A stretch of 64,000 nucleotides of DNA. Origin: Ignavibacteria bacterium. Lineage in GTDB: Bacteria > Bacteroidota > Ignavibacteria > Kapaibacteriales > UBA2268. How positions within the stretch are numbered: the first letter of the stretch is position 1; each line of letters opens with the position of its first letter. The translations under genes and the position numbers were made by a program. The stretch is taken from assembly GCA_026416955.1 (NCBI GenBank), contig JAOAEE010000008.1:90608-154607 (forward strand). The letters run 5' to 3'. This document shows positions 10,727 through 39,702 of the stretch, one piece after another. The notes beneath the pieces are model-generated. The model worked only from the letters and a program-made list of their open reading frames with translations, ran no database searches and was not told the DNA's origin.

Positions 10727-11679
10727 AAGAAAAACAAAATAACATAAGTAACTTAAAGAAGTCTATTCAAAATTTTGCCCGTGAATTGGGATTTGAAAAG
10801 GTTGGGTTTGCTTTACCTTCTCCTTTGAAGAAGGATTTTGAGTATTACAATCAATGGTTATCTTTGGGTTATAATGCTTCAATGGATTATTTGGAGAGAA
10901 ATTTAGATAAAAGAAAAAATGTAGAGTTGATATTACCCGAAGTTAAAAGTGTGATCGTTTTTGCACATTCCTATTACACTGGAATTGAGCATAAAAACAA
11001 TTTTTTAAAGATTTCAAGATATGCGTGGGGTAAAGATTATCATAAGGTAATTGCAAAGAAACTAGAGTGCGTTGTTGAGTTTTTAAGTAGCAAGTATAAA
11101 AATTTTAAGGCGAAAATTTATGTCGATACCGGTCCGATTTTAGAAAAGTATTGGGCTGTTATTTCTGGCATAGGATGGCAAGGGAAAAATAGTTTAGTTT
11201 TGAACAAGGAATTGGGTTCCTATTTTTTTATTGGAATTTTGTTAACAAATATTGAGTTTGAACCAGACCCTAAAGTTGAAGATCATTGTGGTAAATGTAC
11301 TCGTTGTATTGATGCTTGTCCAACGGGTGCGATTGTTCAACCAAAAGTAATCGATTCAAGAAAGTGTATTTCTTTTTGGACTATCGAAAAGAAAAGAGAA
11401 GAAATAATTTCCGAAAGTGTTGACCTAAATGGCTGGATATTTGGTTGTGATATTTGCCAAGAAGTGTGTCCTTGGAATAAAAAAGCCAAAATTACGAAAG
11501 AGACCGATTTTTATCCGGATGAAATAGGAACTAATCTTACCGAAGAAATTATTTTGAACTTAACAGAAGAAAATTTTCGAAATATTTTTAAAAATTCAGC
11601 TATAAAGAGAGCTAAATACCAAGGCTTGTTAAAAAATTACTTTCATATTTTGAGGAAAAAATGTACACAAATCGATTAA
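10714..11679 (+). CDS. queG: tRNA epoxyqueuosine(34) reductase
   Basis: 321 aa with two 4Fe-4S ferredoxin motifs ([16 protein letters not shown]; [11 protein letters not shown]) in a QueG-like N-terminal context. Confidence 0.75.
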
Positions 11680-13745
11680 TAAATGAAAAAAGCCCTTATT
11701 TGCTTCAACACGCAAAAAATCCAGTAGATTGGTATCCTTGGTGTGATGAAGCATTTGAAAGAGCTAAGCAAGAGGATAAACCAATTTTTCTTTCAATTGG
11801 TTATTCCTCGTGTCATTGGTGTCACGTTATGGAACGAGAAAGTTTCGACGACCCAGAAATTGCTCGTATCCTTAATGATGTTTTCGTTTGTATCAAAGTT
11901 GACAAAGAAGAACGACCAGACTTGGATGCTTTCTATATGAAGGTATGTCAAATTATGACTGGAAGTGGAGGCTGGCCTTTGACCATCATTATGACACCGG
12001 ACAAAAAACCTTTTTTTGCGGGTACATACTTCCCAAAAGAAAGTTACCCTAATCGGATAGGACTAAAAGATTTAGCAATTAATGTTCAAAGAATATGGAG
12101 GGAGCGAAGATTTGATGTTGAAAATTCTGCTAATAATTTATTGAATTACATTTCCACTATGGAAAAAGATTTAACAGAAAAAAAGCTCGATAATGATTAT
12201 TTATTGAGTGTTTACAATAGTTTGGAATTTTCTTACGATAGAATTTATGGTGGCTTTTCACCAGCTCCCAAATTTCCAACTCCACAAAATTTATTGTTTC
12301 TTTTAGATTACTTTGTATTGACTGGAAATGAGTTTGCTTTAGAAATGGTAACCAATACACTAACCAAAATGAGGTTAGGTGGAATTTTTGACCAAATTGG
12401 TTTTGGGTTCCATAGGTATTCAACAGATGGAAAATGGTTGCTACCCCATTTTGAAAAAATGTTGTATGACCAAGGAATGTTGTTATATACATATTCGCAA
12501 GCATATCGTATTACTCGCAACAAATTTTTCTTTGATGTAGCAAGTGAAATCGTAGAATATGTTTTACGCGACTTATTGTTCGAGAATAAAGCCTTCTTTA
12601 CAAGTGAAGATGCAGACAGTGAGGGTGAAGAAGGTAAATATTATTTGTTCGAATATGAGGAATTAGAAGAACTTTTACAATCTGATTTTGAACTTTTCTC
12701 CAAGATTTATAATATCAATGTCAAAGGAAATTTTTCTCACTTCTTTGAAAGAAATGAAGGGAAAAATATTTTATTTTTAAATAAACCATTAGAGGAAATA
12801 GCTAATGAAATTGGTTTTTCAGAGGAAGACTTAATAGAGAAAATTGAAAGTTTTCGGAGCAAACTTTTTGATTATCGTTCACAAAGGACAAAGCCTTTTA
12901 AAGACACAAAGATACTTTCCGATTGGAATGGACTTATGATTGCTGGTTTAGCCAATTTTCTATCTATTTCTCAAAGGGAAGACATTAGTCAAATTCTTTT
13001 TAATTATCTTTCTTTTTTTAGGGAAAATGTCTTAAAATCAGATGGTACAATTTTCCATATGTTTATGGACGGTGAAAGTAGGGTAGAAGGGCTATTAGAT
13101 GATTATGCTTATAATATTTTTGGATTCGTTGAAGCCTTTAAAAATACTTATAATCAGGAATTTCTTGTTCAAGCACAAAAATTATTAGACAAATCGATTG
13201 AATTATTTTGGAATAATAAGGATGGGGTATTTTATCTATCAAAATATGAAAGCGATAACAATTTTTTAAATACATACGAACTTTTTGATGGTGCAATTCC
13301 CTCTGGGAATTCAGTTATGTTCTATAACCTTAACCAACTTTATTTGTTTTCCGGAGAAACAAAATATAAAGAAATTTCAAAAAAACTTGAAGGTAGTTTT
13401 TCAAAATATTGTGCTGATAATCCCACAGCATACAATTTCTTCAATTTTGCACTTCAACGCTCTTTGAAACACAAATTTGAAGTTGTTGTAGTTTACTCAG
13501 AAGTGATGGATGAATTGTATAAAAAAATAAAAGAATTATTTCAAAATACTTACATACCTAATGGATTGGTAATATTTTCTCAAAAAAATAGAAAAGAAAA
13601 TTTAGATTTTCCTTATTGGAGTAACTATCAATTAAAAGAAGGAAAGACAACAGTTTATCTTTGCTCAAATTTTTCTTGTAGCGAACCAATTACTAATTTT
13701 GAAATTTTTATTAAGGAGTTTAATAAAATTGTCCAAGGAGATTGA
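11661..13745 (+). CDS. thioredoxin-domain protein, DUF255/YyaL (spermatogenesis-associated protein 20-like)
   Basis: 694 aa. N-terminus [54 protein letters not shown] is the DUF255 thioredoxin-like signature. The C-terminal region is glycosidase-like six-hairpin. Confidence 0.75.
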
Positions 13746-27667: not shown

Positions 27668-29077
27668 ATGGGAAATGTAGTAAAAAATACCATTCTTGTT
27701 GGAATCTCAGAAATTTCTAGTAAAGGTATTATTGCTCTTGCGATGATAATTTTGGTAAGAACACTTTCCCCCGAAAGTTATGGTATCTATTCCTTAGCTA
27801 TCACATTAACATACTTGTTTATAGGTTTTATTCATTCTGGTTTTTATACAATTGGAATGAGAGAAATTGCGAAATATCCAGAACTTTCCAATAAATATGT
27901 AAATAATGTAACAACTCTCAAAATAATAATAAGTATAATTTCATTTGGTATTCTTTCCATTATTGTATTTTTTTTGGATAAACCAATCGAGGCCAAAATA
28001 GCCTTTCTTTTAGCGGGAGTTTTTCTATTTTTACTTGCTTTCCATATCGATTGGTTATTTCGTGGGCAGGATATAATGGAAATACCTTCAATAGGTAGTA
28101 TTCTTCAAGGAATCTCTCTTTTAATTTTTATTTTTTTGTTCGTTAAAGAAAAAAATGACTTTAAAGTTGCTGTTGTAACCTACCTTGTGTCGTGGTTTAT
28201 TTATATTTTTTTTGAACAACTTGTTTATACTCGCAAATATGGTTTACTGAAATTTGAACTCGATAAAGGTTTTTGTAAAACTTTAGTGAAAGCTTCCTTT
28301 CCAATTTCAATTTCCGCTTTAATTATTACTCTTTATGGCAATAATAATATTTTGATATTAAATTATTTCAAAGGGGATTACGAAACTGGGATTTATTCTG
28401 CTATGGTTAGGTTGATGAATTTATTGCTTTTACCGAACAGTGTACTTCAAATTGCATTCTTTCCAGAGTTATCGAGGTCGGTTTTGGATGGTACTCTTAA
28501 GCTTTCGCAAAGGCGCTATTTAGTAGTGCTATTTTCCATTGGTTTCTTTGCAATTTTTGGTATGTTTGGATACTCCAAAGAAATTATTGGTTTCTTTTTT
28601 GGTAAAAACTATTTGGCTGGTGACAATGTTTTTAAAATTTCATTAATTGCTTGCTTCTTTTCATATCTTAGTGCTTCTTCTGCGATTATTGCTGTCGCAC
28701 TTGATAAGCAAAAAACTTTGCTTCTTTCTACTATTAGTGGGGTTATAGTATCTATTTCATTAAACCTTCTTCTTGTTCCCAAATTTGGTGCAATTGGTGC
28801 TGTAGTTACTCTTTCAATAACGGAAATTATCGTATTCCTGGTTTTACTGATTTTAAATTGGAATAAGTCTTTTTTTGAACCTTACTTGGAATTGACGAAG
28901 CCTTTCCTAATAGGAATTTTATCACTTGGGGTATCGAAAACTATTGGAAATATTACATCAACATTATTTGGGATTTCTTCTTATGTGATTTTGTTTCTTC
29001 TTTTTGCATTCGCAACAAAATTAATAACTTTCGATATATTAAAGAAATTAATTAACATCAGAAATAACTCACAATAG
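27668..29077 (+). CDS. polysaccharide biosynthesis protein / oligosaccharide flippase (Wzx-like, MOP superfamily)
   Basis: 469 aa with about 12-14 predicted TM helices. Its start abuts the GH57 stop (TAAATG). Confidence 0.65.
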   Translation: MGNVVKNTILVGISEISSKGIIALAMIILVRTLSPESYGIYSLAITLTYLFIGFIHSGFYTIGMREIAKYPELSNKYVNNVTTLKIIISIISFGILSIIVFFLDKPIEAKIAFLLAGVFLFLLAFHIDWLFRGQDIMEIPSIGSILQGISLLIFIFLFVKEKNDFKVAVVTYLVSWFIYIFFEQLVYTRKYGLLKFELDKGFCKTLVKASFPISISALIITLYGNNNILILNYFKGDYETGIYSAMVRLMNLLLLPNSVLQIAFFPELSRSVLDGTLKLSQRRYLVVLFSIGFFAIFGMFGYSKEIIGFFFGKNYLAGDNVFKISLIACFFSYLSASSAIIAVALDKQKTLLLSTISGVIVSISLNLLLVPKFGAIGAVVTLSITEIIVFLVLLILNWNKSFFEPYLELTKPFLIGILSLGVSKTIGNITSTLFGISSYVILFLLFAFATKLITFDILKKLINIRNNSQ

Positions 29078-31855
29078 TTTATATGAATTTTGTTTTTCTT
29101 TGTTCATTATTTCAGTAAAATAATAATTATTTTCATTTAATTCATCTGGTTTGATGAATTTTACATCTAAGGGTTTTGGATGCTTGAAACCTGTATTTAA
29201 AAAGATTATGTCTTGAAGCAATAAATTCCAAGGTTCTAACCAAGATTCTAATCTTGAAAGATTGTCAGGTTTCCCATCGATGTAAAATAACAAATCTAAA
29301 TCGGAAGTTGCCGAAGCAGTTCTTGAATACACTGTTCCAAATAAGTAAATACCTTTAACTCCATATCGGTGGGGAATTAATTTTTCGACCATTTTCTCAG
29401 CAAATTTCCATCGAATTTCCCAAGGTTCTTCCAGTGTAGTAGTGGATTTTTTTGATGTCTGTGCTTTGTAAACTTTATAAATTGGAGTGATAGAGGTTTC
29501 TGTTAGGAAGGCAATAGATAGATTTTGTTCCGAATTACTAATTACTTTTAGCACTTTACCCCCACTTTCTTTTGTAACTGATATCACTTTAAGCACATAA
29601 GAAATATGAGCGTATTCTGGTAAAAGGTCGGCTAAGATATTGTAAGATCTATGAATTAAGAGTTCGTTAAAAATTGTTTCTTGGTCTTCTAAGAAAATAG
29701 GTATGTAAAGAATGTTTGATTCCACCAAGTCTTGGAAGAAGTGTGTACCAAAGGATACTTCTGGTGAATAATTTCCAACTCTGTGTGCTATTTCTACTAA
29801 ACAAGCTGTGTTGTAAATTGATGAATAAGTGACTTTTACTCCAAGCCGAACATCGTCGCGAGTTCCCCAGCGCCCGGGCCCAATTAGAATAAATTTTTTC
29901 GAAGGGAGTATTGTATTCAATTTCCCAATTGCTTCGGAAATTTGGTAGTAATCGTTGATGGAATCAATTTTAGAGTAATTAGTCGGGTCGACATAAACAA
30001 TGTATTCAACATCTGGCGATTTGCCATTACTAACGAATTTATGCGTTTTAAACAATATTTCCTCTTCTGAAAGATTAGTTGGAATTTCAAAAAGTGTATT
30101 ATCTTTTGAAGTACTTTGAGAACGACATTGTAAAAGATATAGATGTTCACCATTGAATGCAAATTCGATATCAACAGGGGTTGAAAGTTCATTTTCTAAT
30201 AATTTTAGAATTTTGCTTATTGTTTCAAGAAAGTTAGTATTTGCAAAAAGGTTATCAAATGTTACAACCAGAGAATTTTCCAATGGATTGACACTTAAAC
30301 CTATTGGCCTACGTAAATGGTTCTCCTCGATAATTGAAAAAACTAAGTTCAACATTGGGAAGTTATTTCCGACCTCGCGAAGCATTTCCTCTATTGTAAT
30401 AGTCTCGAAACGGTTTGTTTCAAGGTTAATTAAATCGACTTTGTTTGGAGAATACTTGATGTAGTCTGTTGGTTCTACGTATATAGAAATGTTAGGTTTA
30501 CCTGGTGAAATTAAAATTGTGTAATCATCACCAATACGGTCGACTGCTCTTGTTCCTAAACCAACAACCATTCGAATTAGTCCATCCTCGCGTTGTATTC
30601 TTGGGGACCACCTAAAATCATTGTAACTAAAGGCAACTCCAGAGAATGCTGGGAAAAAGTATTTCCCAATTTTCTTTCCAACAACCTCTTGAATCATAAT
30701 TCCCATTTCTTCGTTAAAGTCCAAGAGATTGTGTTCAATGCGATATCCAATTGGGTCGGGGCTAAATGTAGAGGCATATACTTCGGCTATTGCGTCCATA
30801 AGAGCAAACAATCGTTCTTGTTTTGTACCTTGATTAGCAAGGAAAATGCTTTTATATTTCCCTGGGAACGAGGTTCCTAATCTGTCTTCCAAAAGGCTTG
30901 ATGAACGGACAATAATTGGATTTTCGCCAAAATCGTCCAAAGCACGAGCAAGCCCGTTTACCAATTCAGGTGGAAATTGAGAATTCTTAAAAACTTGAAT
31001 AATATTAGGATACTCACTTCTTATTTCATCAATTGGTTTATACTTTTGCTCGATAATGTCTTCAAGATTGTTGTATGTTAAGAAGTCGTAAAAAGAATCG
31101 GATGGAATAAACCAAGTTTTAGGAACTTGAACTTTTGCAAGGGAAAACAATTTTTTTTCGTTAACTAAGTGTGGATTTTCGCTAATATATTTTTTTATAA
31201 TTTTTTCGGCAAGTATTAGACCTGCAGCCTTTCCACCAAATCTTCCTATTCCTTCTGTTGTAATTATTGTTCTTTGGAGAAGATGATTAAAATCATTTAT
31301 GGTAATAAAGTTTTTCGATATTTGAACATATTCAAGTTGGTCGGAAAGTAACCTTCTCGATAAAGCAACTCTAATTCCTTGAACTGCTGGGGAAGATTTA
31401 AATTGTTCTTCCAGTTCATCAAGGTTAGGATTTTGAAAAGAATATTTTCGGAGCGACTCTGAAATTTCTTTCAAAGGTATTGATTGGTTGGAAAGTAAGC
31501 GAAGTAAATAACTTGCTTTTTCTTCGTAAATCCATTTTTGAATTAAATAAACTATCTGCTCGTTAGAAAGATGAGATGATGCTAACGTAAATATTTCGTT
31601 TGAATATTTTAACGAATTTTCTAAAACATTTTTCTTTGTCGGTTGGTTTGTTTCGATAAGCAGGTTTTCTTTTTGGAAATCACCATTTCCCAAAAGCAAA
31701 CTAATACTTTGTGCGTCTTTAACTCCTCGGCAAAGCAAATAGTTCAACATTTTCCTTGAAAGAACGGAAAGTAAATAAGGGTCGATTTTGCTTAGTGTGT
31801 TAATTATTTGTACCCAATTATTTGCATCTTCATTTAAATTAATTTCTTTCTCCAT
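29069..31855 (-). CDS. PEP/pyruvate-binding (PPDK_N ATP-grasp) domain protein fused to a C-terminal Pol-beta-type nucleotidyltransferase domain
   Basis: 928 aa. PPDK_N motifs (GGKAAGLILAE...VQVPKTWFIPSD...IIVRSSSLLEDRLGTSFPGKY...MGIMIQEVVGKKIGKYFFPAFSGVAFSYN...DIEFAFNGEHLYLLQCR). The C-terminal minimal NTase motif is hG[GS]x10DxD (IYLFGTVYSRTASATSDLDLLFYIDG). There is no His-swivel (PEP-utilisers) domain. Confidence 0.6.
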   Translation of the reverse strand: MEKEINLNEDANNWVQIINTLSKIDPYLLSVLSRKMLNYLLCRGVKDAQSISLLLGNGDFQKENLLIETNQPTKKNVLENSLKYSNEIFTLASSHLSNEQIVYLIQKWIYEEKASYLLRLLSNQSIPLKEISESLRKYSFQNPNLDELEEQFKSSPAVQGIRVALSRRLLSDQLEYVQISKNFITINDFNHLLQRTIITTEGIGRFGGKAAGLILAEKIIKKYISENPHLVNEKKLFSLAKVQVPKTWFIPSDSFYDFLTYNNLEDIIEQKYKPIDEIRSEYPNIIQVFKNSQFPPELVNGLARALDDFGENPIIVRSSSLLEDRLGTSFPGKYKSIFLANQGTKQERLFALMDAIAEVYASTFSPDPIGYRIEHNLLDFNEEMGIMIQEVVGKKIGKYFFPAFSGVAFSYNDFRWSPRIQREDGLIRMVVGLGTRAVDRIGDDYTILISPGKPNISIYVEPTDYIKYSPNKVDLINLETNRFETITIEEMLREVGNNFPMLNLVFSIIEENHLRRPIGLSVNPLENSLVVTFDNLFANTNFLETISKILKLLENELSTPVDIEFAFNGEHLYLLQCRSQSTSKDNTLFEIPTNLSEEEILFKTHKFVSNGKSPDVEYIVYVDPTNYSKIDSINDYYQISEAIGKLNTILPSKKFILIGPGRWGTRDDVRLGVKVTYSSIYNTACLVEIAHRVGNYSPEVSFGTHFFQDLVESNILYIPIFLEDQETIFNELLIHRSYNILADLLPEYAHISYVLKVISVTKESGGKVLKVISNSEQNLSIAFLTETSITPIYKVYKAQTSKKSTTTLEEPWEIRWKFAEKMVEKLIPHRYGVKGIYLFGTVYSRTASATSDLDLLFYIDGKPDNLSRLESWLEPWNLLLQDIIFLNTGFKHPKPLDVKFIKPDELNENNYYFTEIMNKEKQNSYKLL

Positions 31856-31945
31856 ATATCATTCCATAAAAAGTATTATAACGAAAACAAAAACTATTTT
31901 TAGTTAAGTTAAAAATAAAATGAAATTCAAATAAAAATATTGTAA

Positions 31946-33823
31946 TTATGTTGAATTTGATTGTATTGAGAATAATTTATAGTAAACGCCTTTTATTTCC
32001 ATTAGTTCCTTATGTGTTCCTCGTTCAACAATTTTTCCATTTTCGAATACAAGGATTTGATCTGCGTTTGTAATAGTCGAAAGACGGTGGGCGACAATTA
32101 TTGCTGTTTTATCCTTCAGTGAAAAGTTTATTGCTTCTTGAACAATCTTTTCTGATTCAGAATCCAAAGAAGATGTTGCCTCGTCGAATATTAGAATTTT
32201 TGGATTTCTTACAAGGGCACGTGCAATAGCAATTCTTTGCCTTTCGCCTCCAGAAAGCATAACTCCTCGCTCCCCAATAATTGTATCCAATCCGTTAGGT
32301 AATTTGAGAATAAAATTGTATGAATTGGATATTTTGCAAGCTTTAATGATATCTTCTTCTGTTGCATTTGGATTTCCAATAAGTATGTTATTTCTTATTG
32401 TATCGTTAAAAAGAATAATTTCTTGTGAAACAATGCCAAATAATTGACGATATGATTTAATATCATACTCTTTAATGTTGATTCCGTCAAGAAGAATTTC
32501 ACCATATGTTGGGTCATAAAATCTAACGACTAGGTCTACAATCGTTGATTTTCCACTTCCACTTGCACCAACGAGAGCGATTTTTTTCCCTTTTTCAAGT
32601 ACGAAATTTACGTTTTTAAGAACCATTTCTGAATCGTATGCAAACGAAACATTTTTGAATTCAATGTTATTTTTAAAGGAGGCAATTGCTTTTTTTGTAG
32701 AAACAACCTCGACTTTTTGGTCGAGAATGTCAAAGACACGCTTTGTGCTAACAATTCCGCGCTGAAATTGGGAAATATTGTGGACAATTGTTGCCACTGG
32801 GCTCATAATTGAAAATAGTGCAAAAAGGAAAAGCATTAAATCTTCCCCTTTCATATTTCCGCTTAAGACATAGGAACCACCGACCAGAAAAACTACTACA
32901 AGAGCAATTATAGCAAAAATTTCGTTTAAAGATGGAACCAATGAAATAACAGACTGAAACTTTAATGATGAACGAAAATATTTATTTGTTTTATCGAGAA
33001 ATTTTTCTTGAATTTTTTCTTCAAAATTGTATGCTTTAATAATTCTAATACCAGAAAGAGTTTCTTGGAGTACAGTGGTAAAATCGGCCATTGCTCCTTG
33101 CATTCGATTGGCATATCGGCGTAAATAATGAGTTGAAACTCGTAAAATTCCAATTGTAGCAATACTTGAACTAAAAGCAATCAGAGATAAAAATGGAGAT
33201 ATTGATAAAAGTAAGAAAAGGAAAAGGATAACTTGAATAACTTCGCGAAGTAATCCTGTAAGGGCGGAAATTGTAGTTGAATTAACGACATTTACATCAT
33301 TGGTAAGTGTTGAAATAATCGTTCCTGCTTTTGTTGAGTTAAAAAACTTGATATCCAGTGTTGTTAATTTAAGAAAAAGCTGATTTCTAATGTAACGAAT
33401 GATATTTTCTTCCAACCTCGCATTAGTTATATTTCCCAGATATTTAAAAACATTCTTAAAAATAAATAAGATAACAATGAAAAAACTAAGATTTATCAAA
33501 GTTTTGTGAACATCGATAGGGTTTACGACAAGATTTTTTAAAAAGTTAAAAAAAGAGTGTTTTACAGATTGTAGAAAAGAAGTCGAAATAGATGAATTTT
33601 CTATGGTAATTTTTGAATTAAAAATTAGTTCGAATATTGGTTTGATTGAAGCTACAGTTGTTGCCGTTAAAGTTGAAAAGATAGTGTTCAAAATAATTGT
33701 AGCAAAAAACAAACCTACGAAAGGTTTAGCAAAAGTGAAACCTCGAAGGAAATAGGAACCTTTAAAATTTTCACTCATTGATTTGTTTAGGATTTTCTTT
33801 TGATTCCTTTCCTTCCTCCTCAA
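31946..33823 (-). CDS. ABC transporter permease/ATP-binding protein (MsbA-like exporter)
   Basis: 625 aa with a 6-TM domain followed by an NBD. Walker A is GASGSGKST, the ABC signature is LSGGERQRIAIARAL, and Walker B is ILIFDEATSSLD. An alternative start at 33778 (MSENF) would remove the overlap with the next gene. Confidence 0.8.
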   Translation of the reverse strand: MRRKERNQKKILNKSMSENFKGSYFLRGFTFAKPFVGLFFATIILNTIFSTLTATTVASIKPIFELIFNSKITIENSSISTSFLQSVKHSFFNFLKNLVVNPIDVHKTLINLSFFIVILFIFKNVFKYLGNITNARLEENIIRYIRNQLFLKLTTLDIKFFNSTKAGTIISTLTNDVNVVNSTTISALTGLLREVIQVILFLFLLLSISPFLSLIAFSSSIATIGILRVSTHYLRRYANRMQGAMADFTTVLQETLSGIRIIKAYNFEEKIQEKFLDKTNKYFRSSLKFQSVISLVPSLNEIFAIIALVVVFLVGGSYVLSGNMKGEDLMLFLFALFSIMSPVATIVHNISQFQRGIVSTKRVFDILDQKVEVVSTKKAIASFKNNIEFKNVSFAYDSEMVLKNVNFVLEKGKKIALVGASGSGKSTIVDLVVRFYDPTYGEILLDGINIKEYDIKSYRQLFGIVSQEIILFNDTIRNNILIGNPNATEEDIIKACKISNSYNFILKLPNGLDTIIGERGVMLSGGERQRIAIARALVRNPKILIFDEATSSLDSESEKIVQEAINFSLKDKTAIIVAHRLSTITNADQILVFENGKIVERGTHKELMEIKGVYYKLFSIQSNST

Positions 33824-34313
33824 GTAATTTTAAAATTCTTTGGTAAAGGTATTCCTCGTCTCCTGTTGCGTAACCATTATGTTCCCAAACTATTTCGCCT
33901 TTTGAGTTAATAAGGAAGGAATGTGGCGGGTTATTAACATTCATTGCACGACGGAAATCACCGTTTTCATCTAAGTATATTTCAAATTTCCAATTTCGTC
34001 CTTTCACAAATGGTGCGACTTTTTTTGAATTTCGGACATCATCAATCGATACAGCAATTATTTTAATCCCAGTTTCTTGTTGCCATTTTTCGTACACTTC
34101 GTGAATGTTGTTCAATTCCATAATGCAGGGTTTGCACCAAGTAGCCCAAAAATTGATGACAAAAGGTTTTCCTTCGTTGTTAAATGTTTTTGTTTCTACT
34201 GTTTCTCCCTTGATGTTCTTTACTTTTACATTAGGTATTGTTCTATTTTCTTTTGCGAAACAGATAGAAATTGCAACAAACAAAAGTAACAAACCTATCT
34301 TTTTCATTTTCAC
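33771..34313 (-). CDS. TlpA/ResA-like thiol:disulfide oxidoreductase
   Basis: 180 aa with a signal peptide and the thioredoxin motif WATWCKPC. Confidence 0.7.
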   Translation of the reverse strand: MKMKKIGLLLLFVAISICFAKENRTIPNVKVKNIKGETVETKTFNNEGKPFVINFWATWCKPCIMELNNIHEVYEKWQQETGIKIIAVSIDDVRNSKKVAPFVKGRNWKFEIYLDENGDFRRAMNVNNPPHSFLINSKGEIVWEHNGYATGDEEYLYQRILKLLEEEGKESKENPKQINE

Positions 34314-34373: not shown

Positions 34374-35057
34374 ATGAAAAGACTTATTGTTTTATTTATT
34401 CTGATTGTTTTTATCCCAATTATCCTATTTGCAAAAAGTATAGAAATTGTTTCTGGTGAATTTCAAGTTAATACTTCTCCAAATATTGACGAGGTTAAAG
34501 CACATTGTGTTTTTAAGAATGTTTCCCAACAGGAGATTAGTGTTAAACTTAAGATAAAGCTAATTCAAGCCACAGAAGGTTTAGATGTTGCTTTTTGTTG
34601 GGGTCCAGTTTGTTATCCACCTTTAACCCTTGGTGAATTTCGTGAACCAAGCGATGCTATCTCTCTACTCCCAGGGCAAACAAGTGGACCCAACGAGTTT
34701 TATTTGACATTTTCTCCTAATGGTTACCAAGGTGAAGCTATTGTCGAGGCTATTCTTTATGTAAAAGATAATCCCGAGGATTCATTAAATTTAGTTTTTC
34801 GTCTATCTACAGTTTTGGGTGTACCTCATTCTAAATTCGATAGCCAAATTCTTGCTGTATCGGTAACTGGTGACTATTTCACTTTAGAAAAATTTGGGTT
34901 TACTCCTGGTACAATTTTTGTTTATACTATTGATGGTAAACTCTTATACAAATCTTTTATTTTTGAATTATTAAATATTTCATCTTTTCCTAAGGGGTTA
35001 TATTTAATTAGACAATTGGAACCAAATATAAAGACAATTCTTGTCAATAAGTTATAA
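34374..35057 (+). CDS. hypothetical secreted protein with putative T9SS C-terminal sorting domain
   Basis: 227 aa with a signal peptide (LIVLFILIVFIPIILFA). The C-terminus (GTIFVYTIDGKLLYKSFIFELLNISSFPKGLYLIRQ) resembles the Por secretion CTD. Confidence 0.45.
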   Translation: MKRLIVLFILIVFIPIILFAKSIEIVSGEFQVNTSPNIDEVKAHCVFKNVSQQEISVKLKIKLIQATEGLDVAFCWGPVCYPPLTLGEFREPSDAISLLPGQTSGPNEFYLTFSPNGYQGEAIVEAILYVKDNPEDSLNLVFRLSTVLGVPHSKFDSQILAVSVTGDYFTLEKFGFTPGTIFVYTIDGKLLYKSFIFELLNISSFPKGLYLIRQLEPNIKTILVNKL

Positions 35058-35127: not shown

Positions 35128-38100
35128 ATGATAGTTTATGATTTAGTCCTAAAATTATCATTACTTGTAACTCTTGCTGTTCTTTCGGGATTTATTGATA
35201 GATTTTGGCCTCGTAAGACACTTATTGGGAAAATATTCCAAGGTATACTATTTGGTTTTACTTCAATAGTTGGAATGATATTTCCGTTTGAACTTGCTCA
35301 AGGTTTGATTTTTGATGGAAGAACAATTATTATTAGTTTATCTACTTTGTTTTTTGGGCCTATTTCAGGTGGAATAGCTGCATTAATGTCCTTTGTATAC
35401 CGCACTTATGTTGGTGGCGTGGGATTACCTATGGGACTTGCAACTATTGTTGAAGCATTTATTGTTGGTTTATATTTCTACAGAATTAAGGAGAGAAGGG
35501 ACATTTTCTGGCTTAACACTTTAAGATTATATTCTTTTGGTTTTATTGTACATATTATTATGGTACTTTTAGTTTTTATGCTTCCTTCTAAATATGCTAA
35601 AAGTGTCTGGGATGAGGTTGCTTTAACAATAATTTCAGTTTATCCAGTGGTTTCTTTGTTAATTGGTAAAATCCTTCTTGACCAAGAAATATCATCAAGA
35701 TATTTAAAAGATTTAATTAGAAGAGAATCTTTGTATAGAACCACTTTATATTCCATTGGTGATGCAATAATTACAACTGATGCTAATGGATTTATTCATA
35801 ATATGAACTCTGTGGCCGAGGCACTTACTGGTTGGACAGAGAAAAATGCGAGAGGTAGGGAAATCAACCAAGTTTTTAGAATTGTTAATGAGTTTACTTT
35901 AAAAGAAGCAGAAAATCCTGTTGAACGAGTTCTTCGAGAAGGAAAAGTAGTTGGTCTTGCAAACCATACTGTTCTTATTTCCCGTGATGGTAGAAAAATA
36001 CCAATTGCAGATAGTGGAGCTCCTATTAAAGATGAAAATGGAAACATTATAGGTGTAGTTTTGGTGTTTCGGGACCAAACTAAAGAGCGTGAATATTTAA
36101 GAAAAATTGAAGAGCAAGAAAAAAGATATCGTCAATTTGTTCTATCAAGTTCTGATGGAATATGGAGATTTGATATTGATACTCCAATAAACATTAACTT
36201 ACCCATAGAAGAACAAATAAAATTAATTTTTCAAGGTGGCTATCTTGCGGAATGTAACGATGCATATGCAAAAATGTATGGTTTTGAAAAAGCAGAGGAT
36301 ATTGTCGGTATTCGTTTGATAGATGTTTTAAAACCAGAAGACCAGGAAAATATTGAATATCTTACTAACTTTATTAAAAATGGTTATCGTCTGACTGGAG
36401 GAATTTCCAAAGAATATGATAAATATGGGAATGTATTGTATATTGAAAATAACTTAGTTGGAATAATTGAAGATGGGTATTTAATTCGTGCTTGGGGGAC
36501 ACAGAAAAATATTACTGAAAAATATTTCCTTGAACTTTCGTTAAAAGAAAGTGAAGAGAAGTTTCGCCTTCTGTCCGAAGCATCGTTGGTGGGTATCTAC
36601 TTAATTCAAGATTATAAATTTATTTATGTTAACCAAGCCTTAGCAAATGTATTTGGTTATGAAATTGATGAAATAGTCAATAAGCTTGGTCCTTTGGATT
36701 TAACTCATCCAGATTACCGTCCAATAGTAATTGAGAACATAAACAAAAGAATTTCTGGCGAAATTGAATCGATTAATTATTCATTTAAAGCAGTAAAGAA
36801 AGATGGTTCTACAATTTTCATTGAAGTTTTTGGGAAAAGAATTGAATTTCGTGGAAAACCCGCCATTATTGGGACATTGATGGATATTACTGAAAAACTT
36901 CGTCTCGAAGAGGAAAACCGTATCCGAAATTTACAATTAGAAAGTACTTTGGAAAATACTCCAAATGTTGCTATTCAGTTTTATAATATCAAAGGTGAAG
37001 TTCTCTATTGGAACAAAGCCTCGGAAACAGTTTACGGTTGGACTAAAGATGAAGCACTTGGGAAGACACTGGACCAACTTATGTTAACCAAAGAGGAAAC
37101 AGCAAAATTTTTATCTGTTCTACAAGAAGTTTATTCAACTGGAAATCCTGTTGGTCCAAATGAATGGAAAGTAAAGAGAAAAGATGGTAGTGAAGCTTGG
37201 ATTTTAAGTTCTATTTTTGCTATTCCTTCCAAAGTTAACGAAAAAATTATAGTTTGTGCTAACGTTGATATCACAGAACGAAAAAATGTTGAGATCGCTC
37301 TTAAAGAACAAAATGATTTATTCCAAACACTTATTAATACTTTGGAAGCTGCAATTTTACTATATAGAGGTAAAGATATTGTATTTTGTAATGATGCAAC
37401 ATCTAAAATAACCGGTTATTCACTTGAAGAATTATATTCTATTCCTATATGGGATTTAGTGCATCCAGACCAGAGAGAAAAAGTGAAAAACATTGTCCTT
37501 GCAAGATTCAGAAACGAAGAAGTCCCAAATCGTTACGAAATTAAAATACTCAAGAAAGATGGTTCTACTGGTTGGGTAGATTATTCTGTAGGTATGATAA
37601 AATGGAAAGGAGAATTGACTGCCATTGGTACAGCAATTGACATTACTGAAAGGAAACTTAATGAAGAGATAATACAAATTCAGTATAATATTGCGGATGC
37701 TTTAGTAAAGCAAAAATCTCTTTATAAGTTTTTCGAGGTTGTACGAAAAGAACTTTCGAAAGTTTTGGATACTAAGAATCTTTTTGTTGCTTTTTATGAT
37801 GATGAGAAAGATGAACTTTATAGTCCCTTCGAGTGGGATGAAAAGATGGACGGACCTACAAGATGGAGTGCGAAAAAATCGTTGACTGGGAAAGTAATTA
37901 AAGAAAAAAGAAGTATTCTTTTAAAAAAGGAGGAAATTCAAAAGGAAATAGAAGATGGTCAAATAGAACTTATTGGTTCTTTGGCTGAATCTTGGCTTGG
38001 TGTTCCTTTAATTGTAGAAAATAGAGCATATGGAGCACTGGTAGTACAAAGTTATGATAATCCTAATTCTTTTGATGAGAGAAGTGTTCGTTTGATGGAG

Positions 38101-39702
38101 ATAATAGCTTCCCAACTTTCAACATATATTATCCAAAAGATGCAAACTGATGAATTAACAAAGTTGTCACTAGCCATTTCAAAAAGCCAAGTGGGTGTTG
38201 CAATTACTGATGTCAATGGGATTATTGAATTTGTGAACCCTAAAATGTGTGAAATAACAGGTTATTCTTCGGATGAACTTATTGGAAAAAAAATGAGTAT
38301 TTTAAAATCTGGATATCATACAAATGACTTTTATGCCAATATGTGGTCCACAATACTAAGTGGTAAAGATTGGTCTGGTGAATTATTAAACAAAAAGAAG
38401 GATGGACAATTGTACTGGGAAAAAACTTTGATTTCCCCTATCTTCAATGAATTTGGAAAAATACAACATTTTGTTTCAATAAAAGAAGATATTACTGAGC
38501 AAAAGAAACTTATCAATGAACTGATACAAGCAAAAGAGAAAGCACTTGAAAGTGAAAAGTTGAAAACTGCTTTTCTTGCAAATCTTAGCCACGAGGTTCG
38601 CACTCCTTTAAATGGGCTTATGGGGTTTGCACAAATTTTGGAAACACAAGATCTTTCCAATCAAGAGGTGAAGAGATTTGCTAATATTATAATTAAAAAA
38701 GCGAATGAACTCCTCTCCCTTTTTAACGACATACTTGATTTGTCAATGATAGAAACTGGGCAACTTAGGATTAGTCCAAAAAGTGTGAAATTAAACAGCA
38801 TTCTTTATGATGTCTATTCATCTTTCCTTGTAGAGGATAAAATAAAAAATAAGGAAATAGAATTTAGAATAGGTAAATTATTACCAGAAGACTTTGAAAT
38901 TGTTACCGACCCGATAAGATTAAAGCAAGTATTATATAATCTGGTAAACAATGCAATAAAATTTACAAAAAGAGGATTTGTAGAATTTGGAGCTGTTAAA
39001 GATAAAAATAATACAATTCAATTCTATGTGAAAGATACTGGGATTGGTATTGCGAAAGAAAAGTTTGATTACATATTTGAAAGATTCCAGCAAATTGATA
39101 CAGATTTCTTACGAAGGGAATATCAAGGAGCTGGAATTGGTTTACCACTTTGCAAAGGATTAGTTAAGTTATTGGGTGGTGACATTTGGCTAGAATCCCA
39201 ACTCGGGGAAGGTTCAACCTTTTACTTTACAATATCATCATTAAGTAGTATTGAAAAAGAAACATTAACCAAAGAAAAGTTTTCTTTCAAATTTGACAAA
39301 ATTCAGTTTGAAGAGGAGATTACTATTTTAATTGCAGAAGATGATTATGTAAATTTCGTGGTATTGGAAAAAATGTTAAGTAAAAATTACAATTGCGAAG
39401 TGTTACACGCTAATACTGGTAAAGAGGCTATTGAGTTTGTCAATAAGAGAAAAGATATTAACATTATTCTGCTTGATATTCGTATGCCAATAGTAGACGG
39501 ATATAGTGCTTTTAAAGAAATTAAGAAAATAAATCCCAGTATTCCAATAATTGCTGTGACTGCATATTCATATTCAGATGATAAGAGGAAAATTGTGGAA
39601 ATGGGTTTTGATGATTATGTTTCAAAGCCTTATGATTTTGAAGAAATAATTGAAAAAATAAATAGAGCGATTTTGAAAACAAAGACAAGTCAAATGGAAT
39701 AA
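35128..39702 (+). CDS. hybrid sensor histidine kinase/response regulator with 5TMR-LytS-type membrane domain, multiple PAS domains and a GAF domain
   Basis: 1524 aa. N-terminal 5TM LytS-YhcK-type sensor (FGPISGGIAALMSFVYRTYVGGVGLPMG). About 6 PAS/PAC repeats (e.g. IGDAIITTDANGFIHNMN). A GAF domain. HisKA (ANLSHEVRTPLNGLMGF). HATPase_c (NLVNNAIKFT...DTGIGI...GAGIGL). C-terminal REC (ILIAEDDYVN...LLDIRMPIVDG). Confidence 0.8.
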   Translation: MIVYDLVLKLSLLVTLAVLSGFIDRFWPRKTLIGKIFQGILFGFTSIVGMIFPFELAQGLIFDGRTIIISLSTLFFGPISGGIAALMSFVYRTYVGGVGLPMGLATIVEAFIVGLYFYRIKERRDIFWLNTLRLYSFGFIVHIIMVLLVFMLPSKYAKSVWDEVALTIISVYPVVSLLIGKILLDQEISSRYLKDLIRRESLYRTTLYSIGDAIITTDANGFIHNMNSVAEALTGWTEKNARGREINQVFRIVNEFTLKEAENPVERVLREGKVVGLANHTVLISRDGRKIPIADSGAPIKDENGNIIGVVLVFRDQTKEREYLRKIEEQEKRYRQFVLSSSDGIWRFDIDTPININLPIEEQIKLIFQGGYLAECNDAYAKMYGFEKAEDIVGIRLIDVLKPEDQENIEYLTNFIKNGYRLTGGISKEYDKYGNVLYIENNLVGIIEDGYLIRAWGTQKNITEKYFLELSLKESEEKFRLLSEASLVGIYLIQDYKFIYVNQALANVFGYEIDEIVNKLGPLDLTHPDYRPIVIENINKRISGEIESINYSFKAVKKDGSTIFIEVFGKRIEFRGKPAIIGTLMDITEKLRLEEENRIRNLQLESTLENTPNVAIQFYNIKGEVLYWNKASETVYGWTKDEALGKTLDQLMLTKEETAKFLSVLQEVYSTGNPVGPNEWKVKRKDGSEAWILSSIFAIPSKVNEKIIVCANVDITERKNVEIALKEQNDLFQTLINTLEAAILLYRGKDIVFCNDATSKITGYSLEELYSIPIWDLVHPDQREKVKNIVLARFRNEEVPNRYEIKILKKDGSTGWVDYSVGMIKWKGELTAIGTAIDITERKLNEEIIQIQYNIADALVKQKSLYKFFEVVRKELSKVLDTKNLFVAFYDDEKDELYSPFEWDEKMDGPTRWSAKKSLTGKVIKEKRSILLKKEEIQKEIEDGQIELIGSLAESWLGVPLIVENRAYGALVVQSYDNPNSFDERSVRLMEIIASQLSTYIIQKMQTDELTKLSLAISKSQVGVAITDVNGIIEFVNPKMCEITGYSSDELIGKKMSILKSGYHTNDFYANMWSTILSGKDWSGELLNKKKDGQLYWEKTLISPIFNEFGKIQHFVSIKEDITEQKKLINELIQAKEKALESEKLKTAFLANLSHEVRTPLNGLMGFAQILETQDLSNQEVKRFANIIIKKANELLSLFNDILDLSMIETGQLRISPKSVKLNSILYDVYSSFLVEDKIKNKEIEFRIGKLLPEDFEIVTDPIRLKQVLYNLVNNAIKFTKRGFVEFGAVKDKNNTIQFYVKDTGIGIAKEKFDYIFERFQQIDTDFLRREYQGAGIGLPLCKGLVKLLGGDIWLESQLGEGSTFYFTISSLSSIEKETLTKEKFSFKFDKIQFEEEITILIAEDDYVNFVVLEKMLSKNYNCEVLHANTGKEAIEFVNKRKDINIILLDIRMPIVDGYSAFKEIKKINPSIPIIAVTAYSYSDDKRKIVEMGFDDYVSKPYDFEEIIEKINRAILKTKTSQME

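Follow-up and report, generated by a model that had tools for sequence, protein, structure and literature searches.

A PPDK_N ATP-grasp enzyme with an undescribed invariant-histidine domain and a C-terminal nucleotidyltransferase, from a bacterial family linked to glutamate dehydrogenase

The open reading frame at 29069..31855 on the minus strand of the window (the whole 64,000-nt stretch of Ignavibacteria DNA analysed here) is a real gene and encodes a member of a large uncharacterised bacterial family. It is complete, with an ATG start, 928 codons, and a TGA stop. In the encoded enzyme, a helical N-terminal region is followed by three further parts: a PPDK_N ATP-grasp domain, a domain not described before whose histidine is invariant, and a small nucleotidyltransferase (NTase). 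Most lineages have the family gene in an operon with glutamate dehydrogenase (GDH); the region analysed here is an exception. Recurrence in thousands of homologues puts the architecture far beyond chance. A sequence-only reading had called it an unusual fusion, which does not agree with the at least 574 loci counted among species-representative genomes of roughly a dozen phyla.

The N-terminal all-helical region (aa 10-195; 31271..31828, minus strand) was delimited by AlphaFold2 secondary structure and conservation and has no Pfam match or assigned family. Alignments of homologues show that it is conserved over about 195 aa, with an invariant W108 and the signature IQKWI.EEK, while E111 is invariant in an alignment of 30 sequences and at least 90% conserved in 106. 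The region is also present in an NTase-less branch of about 770 aa and absent from a short paralogue. It is followed by PPDK_N (PF01326; aa 206-596; 30068..31240, minus strand; Pfam E=1.4e-58, 199 bits), so the dikinase-type ATP-grasp that had been estimated at residues 190-565 is indeed present. Its motifs are intact (GGK209, V316-R-S-S-S-L-L-E-D324, F330-x-G-K-Y, D562-x-E564, and Q576-x-R578), and their columns are invariant among aligned homologues. Foldseek matched this domain to rifampin phosphotransferase (RPH, 5hv3, E=3e-15), PEPS (2ols), HpeI (9goj), and PPDK. The protein scores 10-fold or more beneath all NCBIfam equivalog cutoffs. No match to PF00391 or PF02896 at E<=1 was found in the 928-aa protein, in keeping with the earlier remark that the canonical His swivel domain is missing. 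Pfam and Foldseek showed no PEP/pyruvate TIM barrel and no RIF-binding domain, and no GlnE or GlnD family domain was detected by Pfam or NCBIfam.

The ATP-grasp had been described as joined to an NTase; both domains are there, but they are not simply joined, since an alpha/beta domain of about 190 aa lies between them and the helical region lies ahead. This undescribed domain, here called the GRWG-GTH module (aa 597-795; 29471..30067, minus strand), contains invariant N647, G661, R662, G664, E688, G703, H705, and F706. Modelled alone, it reached a pLDDT of 93 and a pTM of 0.90. It has no Pfam or PDB-sequence match, its model gave no significant PDB fold match in Foldseek, and hhalign comparison with PpsA and PtsI returned probabilities below 1%; kinship with any known phospho-His domain was not detectable by these comparisons. 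The module is the constant partner of this PPDK_N subfamily, following PPDK_N in 1,473 clusters (50% identity) and forming the C-terminus of the forms of about 770 aa. After a beta-strand it carries a glycine-rich loop, G659-P-G-R-W-G664 (29864..29881, minus strand), of which G661, R662, and G664 are invariant in all branches. Further along lies the segment S701-F-G-T-H705-F-F-Q-D-L710 (29726..29755, minus strand), in which H705 (codon 29741-29743) is placed by confident AlphaFold2 models at the N-terminal end of a helix (705-712) between beta-strands. H705 is invariant in every alignment checked, and the family motif reads S-F/Y-G-T/S-H-F-F. A regular expression for this motif matched 324 of 362 module instances (8 of the 362 are without any G[TS]H motif), and the short paralogues keep it as SQG[ST]HFFHN. 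H705 is a candidate phosphoryl-carrier or catalytic histidine, and the module most likely takes over the swivel domain's task of carrying the phosphoryl group. As the module is not detectably related to known phospho-His domains, phosphorylation of H705 is proposed from its position and invariance. A His-bearing partner domain thus exists, but it does not have the PF00391 fold, and the family is uncharacterised.

Beyond a linker of low model confidence (aa 789-807), the C-terminus forms a minimal (MNT-like) NTase of the Pol-beta superfamily (aa 811-928; 29072..29425, minus strand), as indicated by Pfam, NCBIfam, and Foldseek. The GT-x10-DLD motif read earlier is exact (G840-T841-x10-D852-L853-D854; 29294..29338, minus strand) and is complemented by a third carboxylate, D897 (29165-29167, minus strand). 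An alignment of 30 homologues shows no variation at G840, D852, D854, or D897, and each is at least 90% conserved in 106. The profile matches are Pfam Polbeta (E=4.8e-5, 23.9 bits, under the gathering score of 26.9), Pfam NTP_transf_2 (E=0.016), and NCBIfam MntA_antitoxin (E=0.0019). Whether this segment would model as an NTase fold had been raised as a check, and the AlphaFold2 model (pLDDT 85, pTM 0.73) confirms an MNT/MntA-like fold, with Foldseek matches at probabilities of 0.98-1.00 to 2rff, MntA (7ae9_G/7bxo), 8xeo, and HI0073 (1no5). The nearest structural relatives include both protein AMPylators and small-molecule nucleotidyltransferases, and weaker fold matches include aminoglycoside/spectinomycin NTases such as AAD(9) (6xz0).

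The resemblance to MntA antitoxins, together with weak matches to the PADLOC candidate PDC-S09 (E=2.6e-6), could point to a signalling-nucleotide or defence enzyme whose NTase and pyrophosphoryl-transfer module would synthesize or modify a nucleotide messenger, or to an MNT-type toxin-antitoxin or defence module, and the metallophosphoesterase that neighbours family loci could then degrade a nucleotide signal. Such a role is very unlikely, as the PADLOC matches are confined to some 50 residues in the core of the NTase, no HEPN partner or defence-island context was found in the window or related loci, the operon partner is a housekeeping GDH, and the phosphoesterase has no close solved relative suggesting a cyclic-nucleotide phosphodiesterase.

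The fusion was found in Ignavibacteria/Kapaibacteria, Bacteroidota, Calditrichia, Zixibacteria, Acidobacteriota, Planctomycetota, Myxococcota, Gemmatimonadota, and others. The long forms measure 928-1060 aa, and most of them carry a sensor-like N-terminal domain with a weak GAF-like match. The short paralogue consists of the ATP-grasp, with all its motifs kept, and the His module; one variant has a marginal REC domain. Paralogue and long form can also be fused, as in P0121 (1639 aa, two PPDK_N domains) and L012 (1651 aa). The family is vertically distributed over a dozen phyla, where its surroundings are those of a GDH operon rather than of mobile or resistance genes.

The window copy is solitary and has no N-terminal sensor-like domain; no GDH, short paralogue, or phosphoesterase is encoded within the 64,000 nt. 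Upstream on the same strand, after a gap of 90 nt, lies an ABC half-transporter exporter (ABC_membrane + ABC_tran by Pfam; 31946..33823, minus strand), while a convergent Polysacc_synt (Wzx-like) flippase (Pfam; 27668..29077, plus strand) overlaps the gene by 9 nt, with its TAG at 29075-29077 and the enzyme gene's TGA at 29069-29071. This arrangement had been noted correctly. Only relatives at 59-77% identity (L002, L003, L004, L089, and L090) retain the exporter beside the gene, homologues at <=52% identity have neither exporter nor flippase next to it, and both neighbours represent block synteny within the Kapaibacteria lineage rather than conserved functional partners. An enzyme of antibiotic or xenobiotic resistance, combining RPH-like phosphorylation with ANT-like nucleotidylation and working with the MsbA-like exporter, would fit the exporter's position, the AAD(9)-type fold matches, and the fact that RPH is the closest solved ATP-grasp. 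Nevertheless, the antibiotic-like role suggested before is not supported and is the least probable of the explanations considered, because the RPH alignment spans the ATP-grasp only, the RIF-binding and swivel domains are absent, RIF_Ptrans scores 33.9 bits against a cutoff of 999, the GC content is native (33.5% versus 32.3% for the window), the exporter is confined to one lineage, and the vertically inherited family has GDH as its cross-phyla partner.

Among 43 loci of homologues at <50% identity, a same-strand GDH gene lies within 2.5 kb upstream in 31 and anywhere in the locus in 36. The conserved order runs from GDH through the short paralogue to the long form, and a metallophosphoesterase gene converges on it; such a convergent Metallophos neighbour directly adjoins 16 of 49 loci. 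Database matches identify the partner as a true GDH (NCBIfam GdhA_Arch E=1e-144; PDB 1euz E=3e-122), and identity between operon GDHs of different phyla is unusually high (67-74%). NTase-less members are also GDH-linked, including L088 of the cultured Desulfacinum infernum and L093, in which the family gene begins on the final base of the GDH gene. Within the window's own clade, GDH is upstream in none of six loci and anywhere in one.

One possible though rather doubtful explanation is a metabolic enzyme, in which the ATP-grasp and His module would act as a dikinase on a GDH-linked small molecule (2-oxoglutarate, glutamate, ammonia, or a nicotinamide cofactor) and drive GDH flux with ATP, and the NTase of the long branch would contribute nucleotidyl activation as a further step. 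This amounts to the two-step activation proposed earlier, moved into central nitrogen/amino-acid metabolism. Characterised PPDK_N enzymes mostly use small molecules (pyruvate, rifampin, and the phenolic/prodiginine substrates of HpeI, PigC, and RedH), contiguous or nearly contiguous genes are typical of consecutive enzymes or subunits, and the strong conservation of the operon GDHs is also in line with this role. Since the GDH linkage also holds in the NTase-less branch, the core chemistry can do without the NTase. However, no substrate domain for small molecules can be recognised in the protein, the operon shows no conservation of additional pathway enzymes or transporters, and the sensor-like domains and candidate eraser phosphoesterase suit regulation better. 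To our knowledge, no metabolite fits a GDH-linked dikinase reaction.

We tentatively favour, at somewhat short of even confidence, an ATP-driven phospho-His/nucleotidyl-transfer regulator acting on GDH. Like its counterparts in PEP synthase, PPDK, and RPH, PPDK_N would bind ATP and pass a phosphoryl or pyrophosphoryl group on to a histidine, with H705 as the putative acceptor and the G-x-G-R-W-G loop, R662, and E688 as a predicted phosphate-binding site of the His module. The phospho-His would then donate to an acceptor, and in the long-form branch, including the window protein, the MNT/MntA-like NTase would provide a second chemistry, the transfer of a nucleotidyl group (probably AMP). A protein acceptor, most likely GDH itself or a factor controlling it, is suggested by the family-wide GDH operon, the sensor-like domains in most long forms, and the protein AMPylators among the NTase relatives. 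With the convergent metallophosphoesterase as candidate eraser, the whole may form a switch of the writer/eraser type that controls GDH much as GlnE controls glutamine synthetase. As the window copy has neither these adjacent partners nor a sensor domain, its partners would have to be encoded at other sites in the genome. Against a regulatory role, the operon linkage with near-contiguous genes fits a small-molecule metabolic partnership equally, MNT-like NTases include small-molecule nucleotidyltransferases such as AAD(9), the window's own clade lacks the GDH linkage, and the Polbeta score is beneath its gathering threshold. The nucleotidylation of glutamine synthetase by GlnE is an established precedent for NTase control of a nitrogen enzyme. 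SelO AMPylates and inactivates the mammalian GDH GLUD1 (PMC12375108).

Like the Pol-beta NTases GlnE (glutamine synthetase adenylyltransferase) and GlnD (PII uridylyltransferase) and the AMPylase SelO, the proposed regulator would switch a central nitrogen-metabolism enzyme by nucleotidylation, although those regulators have no ATP-grasp and the GDH target is read here from operon context only. With MNT/MntA proteins (type VII HEPN-MNT antitoxins; 7ae9, 7bxo, 8xeo, 1no5, and 2rff), of which characterised members AMPylate protein tyrosine, the NTase shares the small Pol-beta fold with G-S/T...D-x-D and a third Asp, but here it is the sub-threshold C-terminal domain of a 928-1060-aa enzyme without a HEPN partner. 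RPH (5hv1/5hv3/5fbs) and PEP synthase/PPDK share with the family a homologous PPDK_N ATP-grasp and its nucleotide-binding motifs and, likewise, a multi-domain layout in which the ATP-grasp precedes a domain with a conserved histidine. In contrast to them, the family has no PF00391 swivel with its G-G-x-T-x-H-A-A motif, no TIM barrel, and no RIF-binding domain; its histidine sits on an unrelated alpha/beta domain, and the helical region and NTase are additional. The split dikinases HpeI/HpeH (9goj) and phenylphosphate synthase illustrate that an ATP-grasp can work with partner polypeptides, comparable to the short paralogue, which is encoded alongside the long form and in some cases fused to it. 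Their partner polypeptide carries the canonical swivel His domain, whereas here each of the two paralogues combines an ATP-grasp with the novel His module. Succinyl-CoA synthetase and the ADP-forming acyl-CoA synthetases belong to a different ATP-grasp subfamily, and succinyl-CoA synthetase gave no match in the Foldseek top 50 or the profile search; their ATP-grasp phosphorylates a loop histidine of an alpha/beta (flavodoxin-like) domain, and they offer a functional analogy for a phospho-His carrier other than the swivel domain.

The open reading frame at 29069-31855 on the minus strand starts with ATG and encodes a protein of 928 amino acids, and its GC content is 33.5% against 32.3% for the window. 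In scans for promoters and terminators, the surroundings of the gene yielded no signal above shuffled expectation. In an AlphaFold2 model that draws on an alignment of 106 sequences (mean pLDDT 85, pTM 0.73), an all-helical N-terminal region (aa ~13-195) precedes an ATP-grasp domain of the PPDK_N type (PF01326, aa 206-596, Pfam E=1.4e-58), which is followed by a mixed alpha/beta region (aa ~597-790, hereafter the module), a disordered linker (aa 789-807), and a small alpha/beta C-terminal domain (aa 811-928). The sequence-only reading, which had proposed a PPDK_N ATP-grasp domain joined to a C-terminal nucleotidyltransferase (NTase), was right about the domain composition; its further views, namely that the fusion is unusual, that the ATP-grasp domain has no histidine partner, that the protein modifies antibiotics, and that the neighboring exporter is relevant, were not borne out.

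In the PDB, Foldseek matched the ATP-grasp domain to rifampin phosphotransferase (RPH, 5hv3, E=3e-15), PEP synthase (PEPS, 2ols), HpeI, and pyruvate phosphate dikinase (PPDK, 1dik). The ATP-grasp motifs GGK209, VRSSSLLED, FxGKY, DxE564, and QxR578 are invariant or at least 90% conserved in alignments of 30 and 106 homologs. NCBIfam matches to PEPS, PigC, and RPH are sub-threshold and confined to this domain, and the equivalog scores of the window protein are all at most 67 bits against cutoffs of 456-1350 bits. As the RPH alignment, like that of PEPS, ends at the ATP-grasp domain and the NCBIfam matches stay below threshold, the proposed antibiotic-modifying role is highly improbable.

Dikinase-type ATP-grasp enzymes are thought to require the phospho-histidine swivel domain PF00391. 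The window protein gave no Pfam match to this domain (at E≤1) or to the PEP/pyruvate TIM barrel PF02896, and a regular expression for the canonical swivel motif G-G-x-T-x-H-[STA]-[STAV] found none. The strongest conservation outside the ATP-grasp domain lies in the unannotated middle of the protein, with the motifs GPGRWG (aa 659-664) and SFGTHFFQDL (aa 701-710). An exhaustive search with aa 597-928 as the query returned 1,473 clusters at 50% identity, many of which are proteins of ~765-790 aa with the module at the C-terminus and the NTase missing. N647, G661, R662, G664, E688, G703, H705, and F706 are invariant across all branches, and every one of these residues (N, G-R-x-G, E, G-x-H-F) is present after PPDK_N in the window protein. 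The pattern S-[FY]-G-[TS]-H-F-[FY] matches in 324 of 362 module instances; short paralogs, which consist of ATP-grasp and module, carry the variant SQG[ST]HFFHN, and the G[TS]H motif is missing altogether in only 8 instances, all of them divergent members. A minority of the long forms, all of them divergent (P0144, P0157, P0171, P0159, P0141, P0147, and P0177), have neither the GPGRWG loop nor the G-T-H histidine and keep the architecture; these may be pseudo-enzymes or regulatory paralogs.

Modeled alone, the module gives a confident structure (pLDDT 93, pTM 0.90), in which two beta-strands flank a helix whose N-terminal end is occupied by H705. A cryptic canonical swivel was considered, in which FILIGPGRWGT...LVEIA...SFGTHFFQDL would mimic ILV..tdPgW...ivTe.GG.tSHaAIvAR, and was rejected as all fold and profile tests were negative. 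Even at E≤10, Pfam matched PF00391 in none of 29 diverse sequences of the module, a search of the module profile against PDB sequences returned nothing relevant (only chance longin-domain matches at E about 0.03), and hhalign of the module against Escherichia coli PpsA and PtsI gave probabilities below 1%. Foldseek found nothing significant for the module model in the PDB (best E=0.1, LdcA, TM 0.38), and no dikinase or EI His-domain is among its top 50 neighbors. The sequence-only reading, which had described the swivel domain as absent and had named a cryptic His domain as the finding that would speak against it, thus holds for the canonical swivel; what it had overlooked is that a module with an invariant H705 follows PPDK_N. 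In the absence of any Pfam, PDB-profile, hhalign, or Foldseek relative, the module is an undescribed domain. Members of this PPDK_N subfamily always carry it. This constant partnership, together with the invariant His, Arg, and Glu and the glycine-rich loop, marks the module out as the best candidate for a role as phosphoryl carrier or catalytic partner to the ATP-grasp domain.

At the C-terminus, the GT-x10-DLD motif was found exactly as the sequence-only reading had described it (G840-T841-x10-D852-L853-D854), and the tested NTase signature (hG[GS]-x9-13-Dh[DE]h with a downstream third carboxylate) is completed by D897. G840, D852, D854, and D897 are invariant in 30 homologs and at least 90% conserved in 106. 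Pfam scores on the window protein are below the gathering thresholds for both Polbeta (PF18765, E=4.8e-5, 23.9 vs 26.9 bits) and NTP_transf_2 (PF01909, E=0.016, 16 vs 21 bits); precomputed PF18765 or PF01909 matches are present in many homologs, and P0141 scores 39.7 bits. The NTase fold also passed the structure-model check that had been named beforehand: the region is modeled at a pLDDT of about 91-96, and Foldseek matched it to the minimal NTases 2rff, MntA (7ae9_G/7bxo), 8xeo_B, and HI0073 (1no5_A) with probabilities of 0.98-1.00. NCBIfam MntA matches the NTase weakly (18.1 vs 60 bits). PADLOC also matched this domain, which could point to a signalling or defence enzyme; the match covers only the ~50-residue NTase core (candidate PDC-S09, E=2.6e-6), with neither a defence-system context nor a near-full-length model match for the window protein, and such a role is very unlikely.

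Homologs number in the thousands, as 7,755 of the 8,000 candidates scored reached E≤1e-3, and the best 120 share 44-77% identity over at least 91% of the query. The fusion that had been called unusual is in fact a common architecture, with relatives encoded at at least 574 loci in species-representative genomes. Lineages among the loci listed include Ignavibacteria/Kapaibacteria, Bacteroidota, Calditrichia, Zixibacteria, Planctomycetota, Myxococcota, Gemmatimonadota, Acidobacteriota (Thermoanaerobaculia, Aminicenantes, and Terriglobia), Eisenbacteria, Krumholzibacteria, Fermentibacteria, and Spirochaetes, and nearly all carrier genomes among these loci are metagenome-assembled genomes (MAGs). 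The carriers are mostly uncultured, and many belong to lineages seen as protein and amino-acid degraders. Source annotations are generic or wrong (‘PEP/pyruvate-binding domain-containing protein’, ‘pyruvate, phosphate dikinase’, ‘predicted nucleotidyltransferase’, or PEP synthase). NCBIfam holds no model for the long form or for the ~770-aa branch without NTase, and a search of 8 million full-text papers, a collection without subscription literature, turned up none that describes the family or its linkage to glutamate dehydrogenase (GDH).

Most homologs are ~1,050 aa long against 925-936 aa for the window protein and its closest relatives, because about 120-130 aa are added in them as a further domain at the N-terminus. 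This domain has the motif ‘L.ER.KELNCLY.IEE.L ... G.IEV.Y ... F..EE..LL.TIA.R’ (homologs P0013-P0120, alignment columns 1-150) and a weak partial GAF match (E=0.0064). The shorter proteins, that of the window included, do not have it, and the 90-nt gap in front of the window gene (31856-31945) is too small for it. Sensor domains within long N-terminal extensions were also considered and set aside, as only the weak partial GAF and a marginal receiver (REC) match were found and most extensions are probably ORF-calling artifacts.

The neighbors in the window are an AhpC-like protein, an ABC exporter, a flippase, a GH57 branching enzyme, DUF3467, a TPR protein, DPBB, and FBPase. The sequence-only reading had noted a same-strand exporter next to the gene and a convergent flippase with a 9-nt overlap; both are confirmed, the exporter (31946-33823) at a distance of 90 nt upstream and the Polysacc_synt flippase at 27668-29077. 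The same gene block is found in a 77%-identical relative (loci L002 and L003) and in the complete Kapabacteria genome CP058732.1, so that the window stems from an organism of the Kapaibacteria type and these adjacencies reflect vertical block synteny; at 52% identity the gene context is entirely different. A functional tie to the exporter, flippase, or GH57 enzyme, such as a glucan-water-dikinase-like role, was therefore rejected, as the adjacency is confined to the Kapaibacteria block and gone at ≤52% identity. The exporter as called (625 aa, TTG start) overlaps the upstream AhpC/TSA-like ORF (33771-34313, minus strand) by 53 nt (33771-33823). As exporters in relatives measure 608-610 aa, translation probably starts some 15 codons downstream of the called start. 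Beyond it lie a 227-aa ORF without Pfam match (34374-35057, plus strand), which has counterparts of like position and size (225-226 aa) in L002, L089, and L090, the syntenic loci of Kapaibacteria, and a 1,524-aa hybrid sensor kinase (35128-39702, plus strand; 5TMR-LYT, about five PAS, GAF, HisKA, HATPase_c, and receiver domains), which is also kept in syntenic relatives.

Elsewhere in the family, a survey of 83 loci revealed a conserved order of GDH (~428 aa), short paralog (~585 aa), and long form (~1,060 aa). The contexts of homologs P0142, P0208, and P0183 are cut short by small contigs or by a position at the contig end. Among homologs less than 50% identical for which the upstream sequence is long enough, a same-strand GDH lies within 2.5 kb upstream in 31 of 43 loci and GDH is found anywhere in the locus in 36 of 43; the short paralog abuts in 20 of 43, an undercount in high-GC genomes since antisense ORFs displaced real genes in ORF calling. 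A convergent calcineurin-like phosphoesterase (~290 aa) often stands beside the operon and abuts in 16 of 49 loci. The dehydrogenase is, by its sequence, a genuine GDH (NCBIfam GdhA_Arch, E=1e-144; closest PDB entries 1euz, 1gtm, and 1b26, E~1e-122 to 1e-116). The short paralog combines PPDK_N with the His module. It aligns to aa 198-720 of the window protein at 28-31% identity, and all ATP-grasp motifs are retained in it. It is fused to the long form in P0121 (1639 aa, two PPDK_N), L012:2799-7754 (1651 aa), P0123 (1654 aa), and P0146 (1484 aa), and the presence of two PPDK_N and two His modules in one natural polypeptide argues that both proteins work as one unit. Apparent GDH fusions were discarded as Rosetta-stone evidence because the long ‘GDH’ ORFs are start-codon over-extensions from ORF calling.

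Members without NTase are linked to GDH as well. In the cultured Desulfacinum infernum DSM 9756, such a gene, for a protein of 776 aa, follows that of a 416-aa ELFV dehydrogenase, and on a metagenomic contig of 3.4 Mb the family gene starts on the very base with which the GDH gene ends. The GDH association is thus a property of the core (helical region, ATP-grasp, and His module), to which one branch has added the NTase. In the window's own clade, an upstream GDH occurs in 0 of 6 loci against 31 of 43 elsewhere, and the 64-kb window contains no GDH, second paralog, or matching phosphoesterase; this clade has lost the GDH adjacency. The window copy, an orphan and sensor-less member, is accordingly the least informative family representative on its own.

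Further observations concern the operons themselves. Operon GDHs are 67-74% identical across phyla (L038:2521-3807 vs L073, L075, L057, L034, L035, L062, and L083), whereas their co-encoded long forms are each just 42-48% identical to the window protein, which suggests strong constraint on GDH or operon transfer. A third paralog class of ~1,000 aa occurs at L044:4305-7319, L083:13494-16463, L030:11582-14815, and L061:10675-13713, the first with a marginal receiver match before PPDK_N and the His module (E=1e-6, 29.2 bits vs a cutoff of 30.2). Just downstream of the D. infernum gene lie two proteins of 209 and 211 aa without Pfam match (L088:10360-10989 and 11487-12122), and a cluster of ~334-aa proteins, also without Pfam match, is found downstream of family members at 7 loci, including Planctomycetota and Eisenbacteria MAGs (L072:6303-7307). 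These small proteins may be further system components.

By analogy with the chemistry of PEPS, PPDK, and RPH, a phosphoryl or pyrophosphoryl group from ATP would be loaded onto H705 and then pass to an acceptor, and the NTase of the long branch would add a nucleotidyl transfer. The acceptor is possibly, if short of probably, a protein (GDH or a GDH-controlling factor), and the family would then be a writer/eraser regulatory system. A protein is favored because the operon contains no other pathway enzymes or transporters, the phosphoesterase could plausibly act as the eraser, a sensor-like N-terminal domain is present in most long forms and a marginal REC domain in a paralog variant, MntA-type protein AMPylators are among the closest NTase structures, and NTase/AMPylase control of nitrogen enzymes has precedents. 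GlnE controls glutamine synthetase, and SelO acting on GLUD1 provides a precedent for AMPylase control of GDH (PMC12375108). The main rival sees the enzyme as a metabolic dikinase whose substrate is a small molecule from the GDH reaction; operon contiguity fits this reading equally well, and we regard it as rather unlikely. Returning to the protein acceptor, the full proposal is an ATP-driven covalent-modification switch for GDH that combines a new phospho-histidine carrier, charged by the dikinase-type ATP-grasp domain, an MNT-like AMPylase in long forms, and a metallophosphoesterase eraser; we consider it doubtful in this complete form. It would be a counterpart of GlnE that serves GDH and shares none of its parts, distributed over about a dozen bacterial phyla, most of them uncultured.

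What is new is an undescribed His-bearing domain joined to known catalytic modules and an unreported GDH association across phyla. In a whole PPDK_N subfamily (1,473 clusters at 50% identity), the swivel domain is replaced by this domain with its invariant histidine, whose phosphorylation, if true, would mean that phosphoryl shuttling has been solved in a new way. The close linkage to GDH across phyla points to a hitherto unknown layer of control or ATP coupling at the main carbon/nitrogen branch point. The family revealed by the window protein merits experimental follow-up, and D. infernum DSM 9756, a cultured carrier of the NTase-less form, makes the GDH idea testable.

Compared with known systems, the likeness to GlnE and GlnD is one of functional analogy only, as neither Pfam nor NCBIfam matched their NTase or associated domains (GlnE repeats; HD and ACT in GlnD). 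HEPN-MNT type VII toxin-antitoxin systems have an adjacent HEPN toxin and a stand-alone MNT of ~100-140 aa, whereas the window gene has neither, and no HEPN gene is among the conserved neighbors in the 83 loci; in the absence of a HEPN partner, the window NTase belongs to the Pol-beta minimal NTase fold class and not to such a system. With PEPS, PPDK, and RPH, the window protein shares the PPDK_N ATP-grasp domain, yet the swivel phospho-histidine domain PF00391 and the third, substrate domain (TIM barrel PF02896 or RIF-binding domain) are theirs and missing here. Judged from its domains, it probably works like a dikinase-type ATP-grasp enzyme that is devoid of two of the three features defining PEPS, PPDK, and RPH, and it should therefore not be filed or annotated as any of these enzymes.
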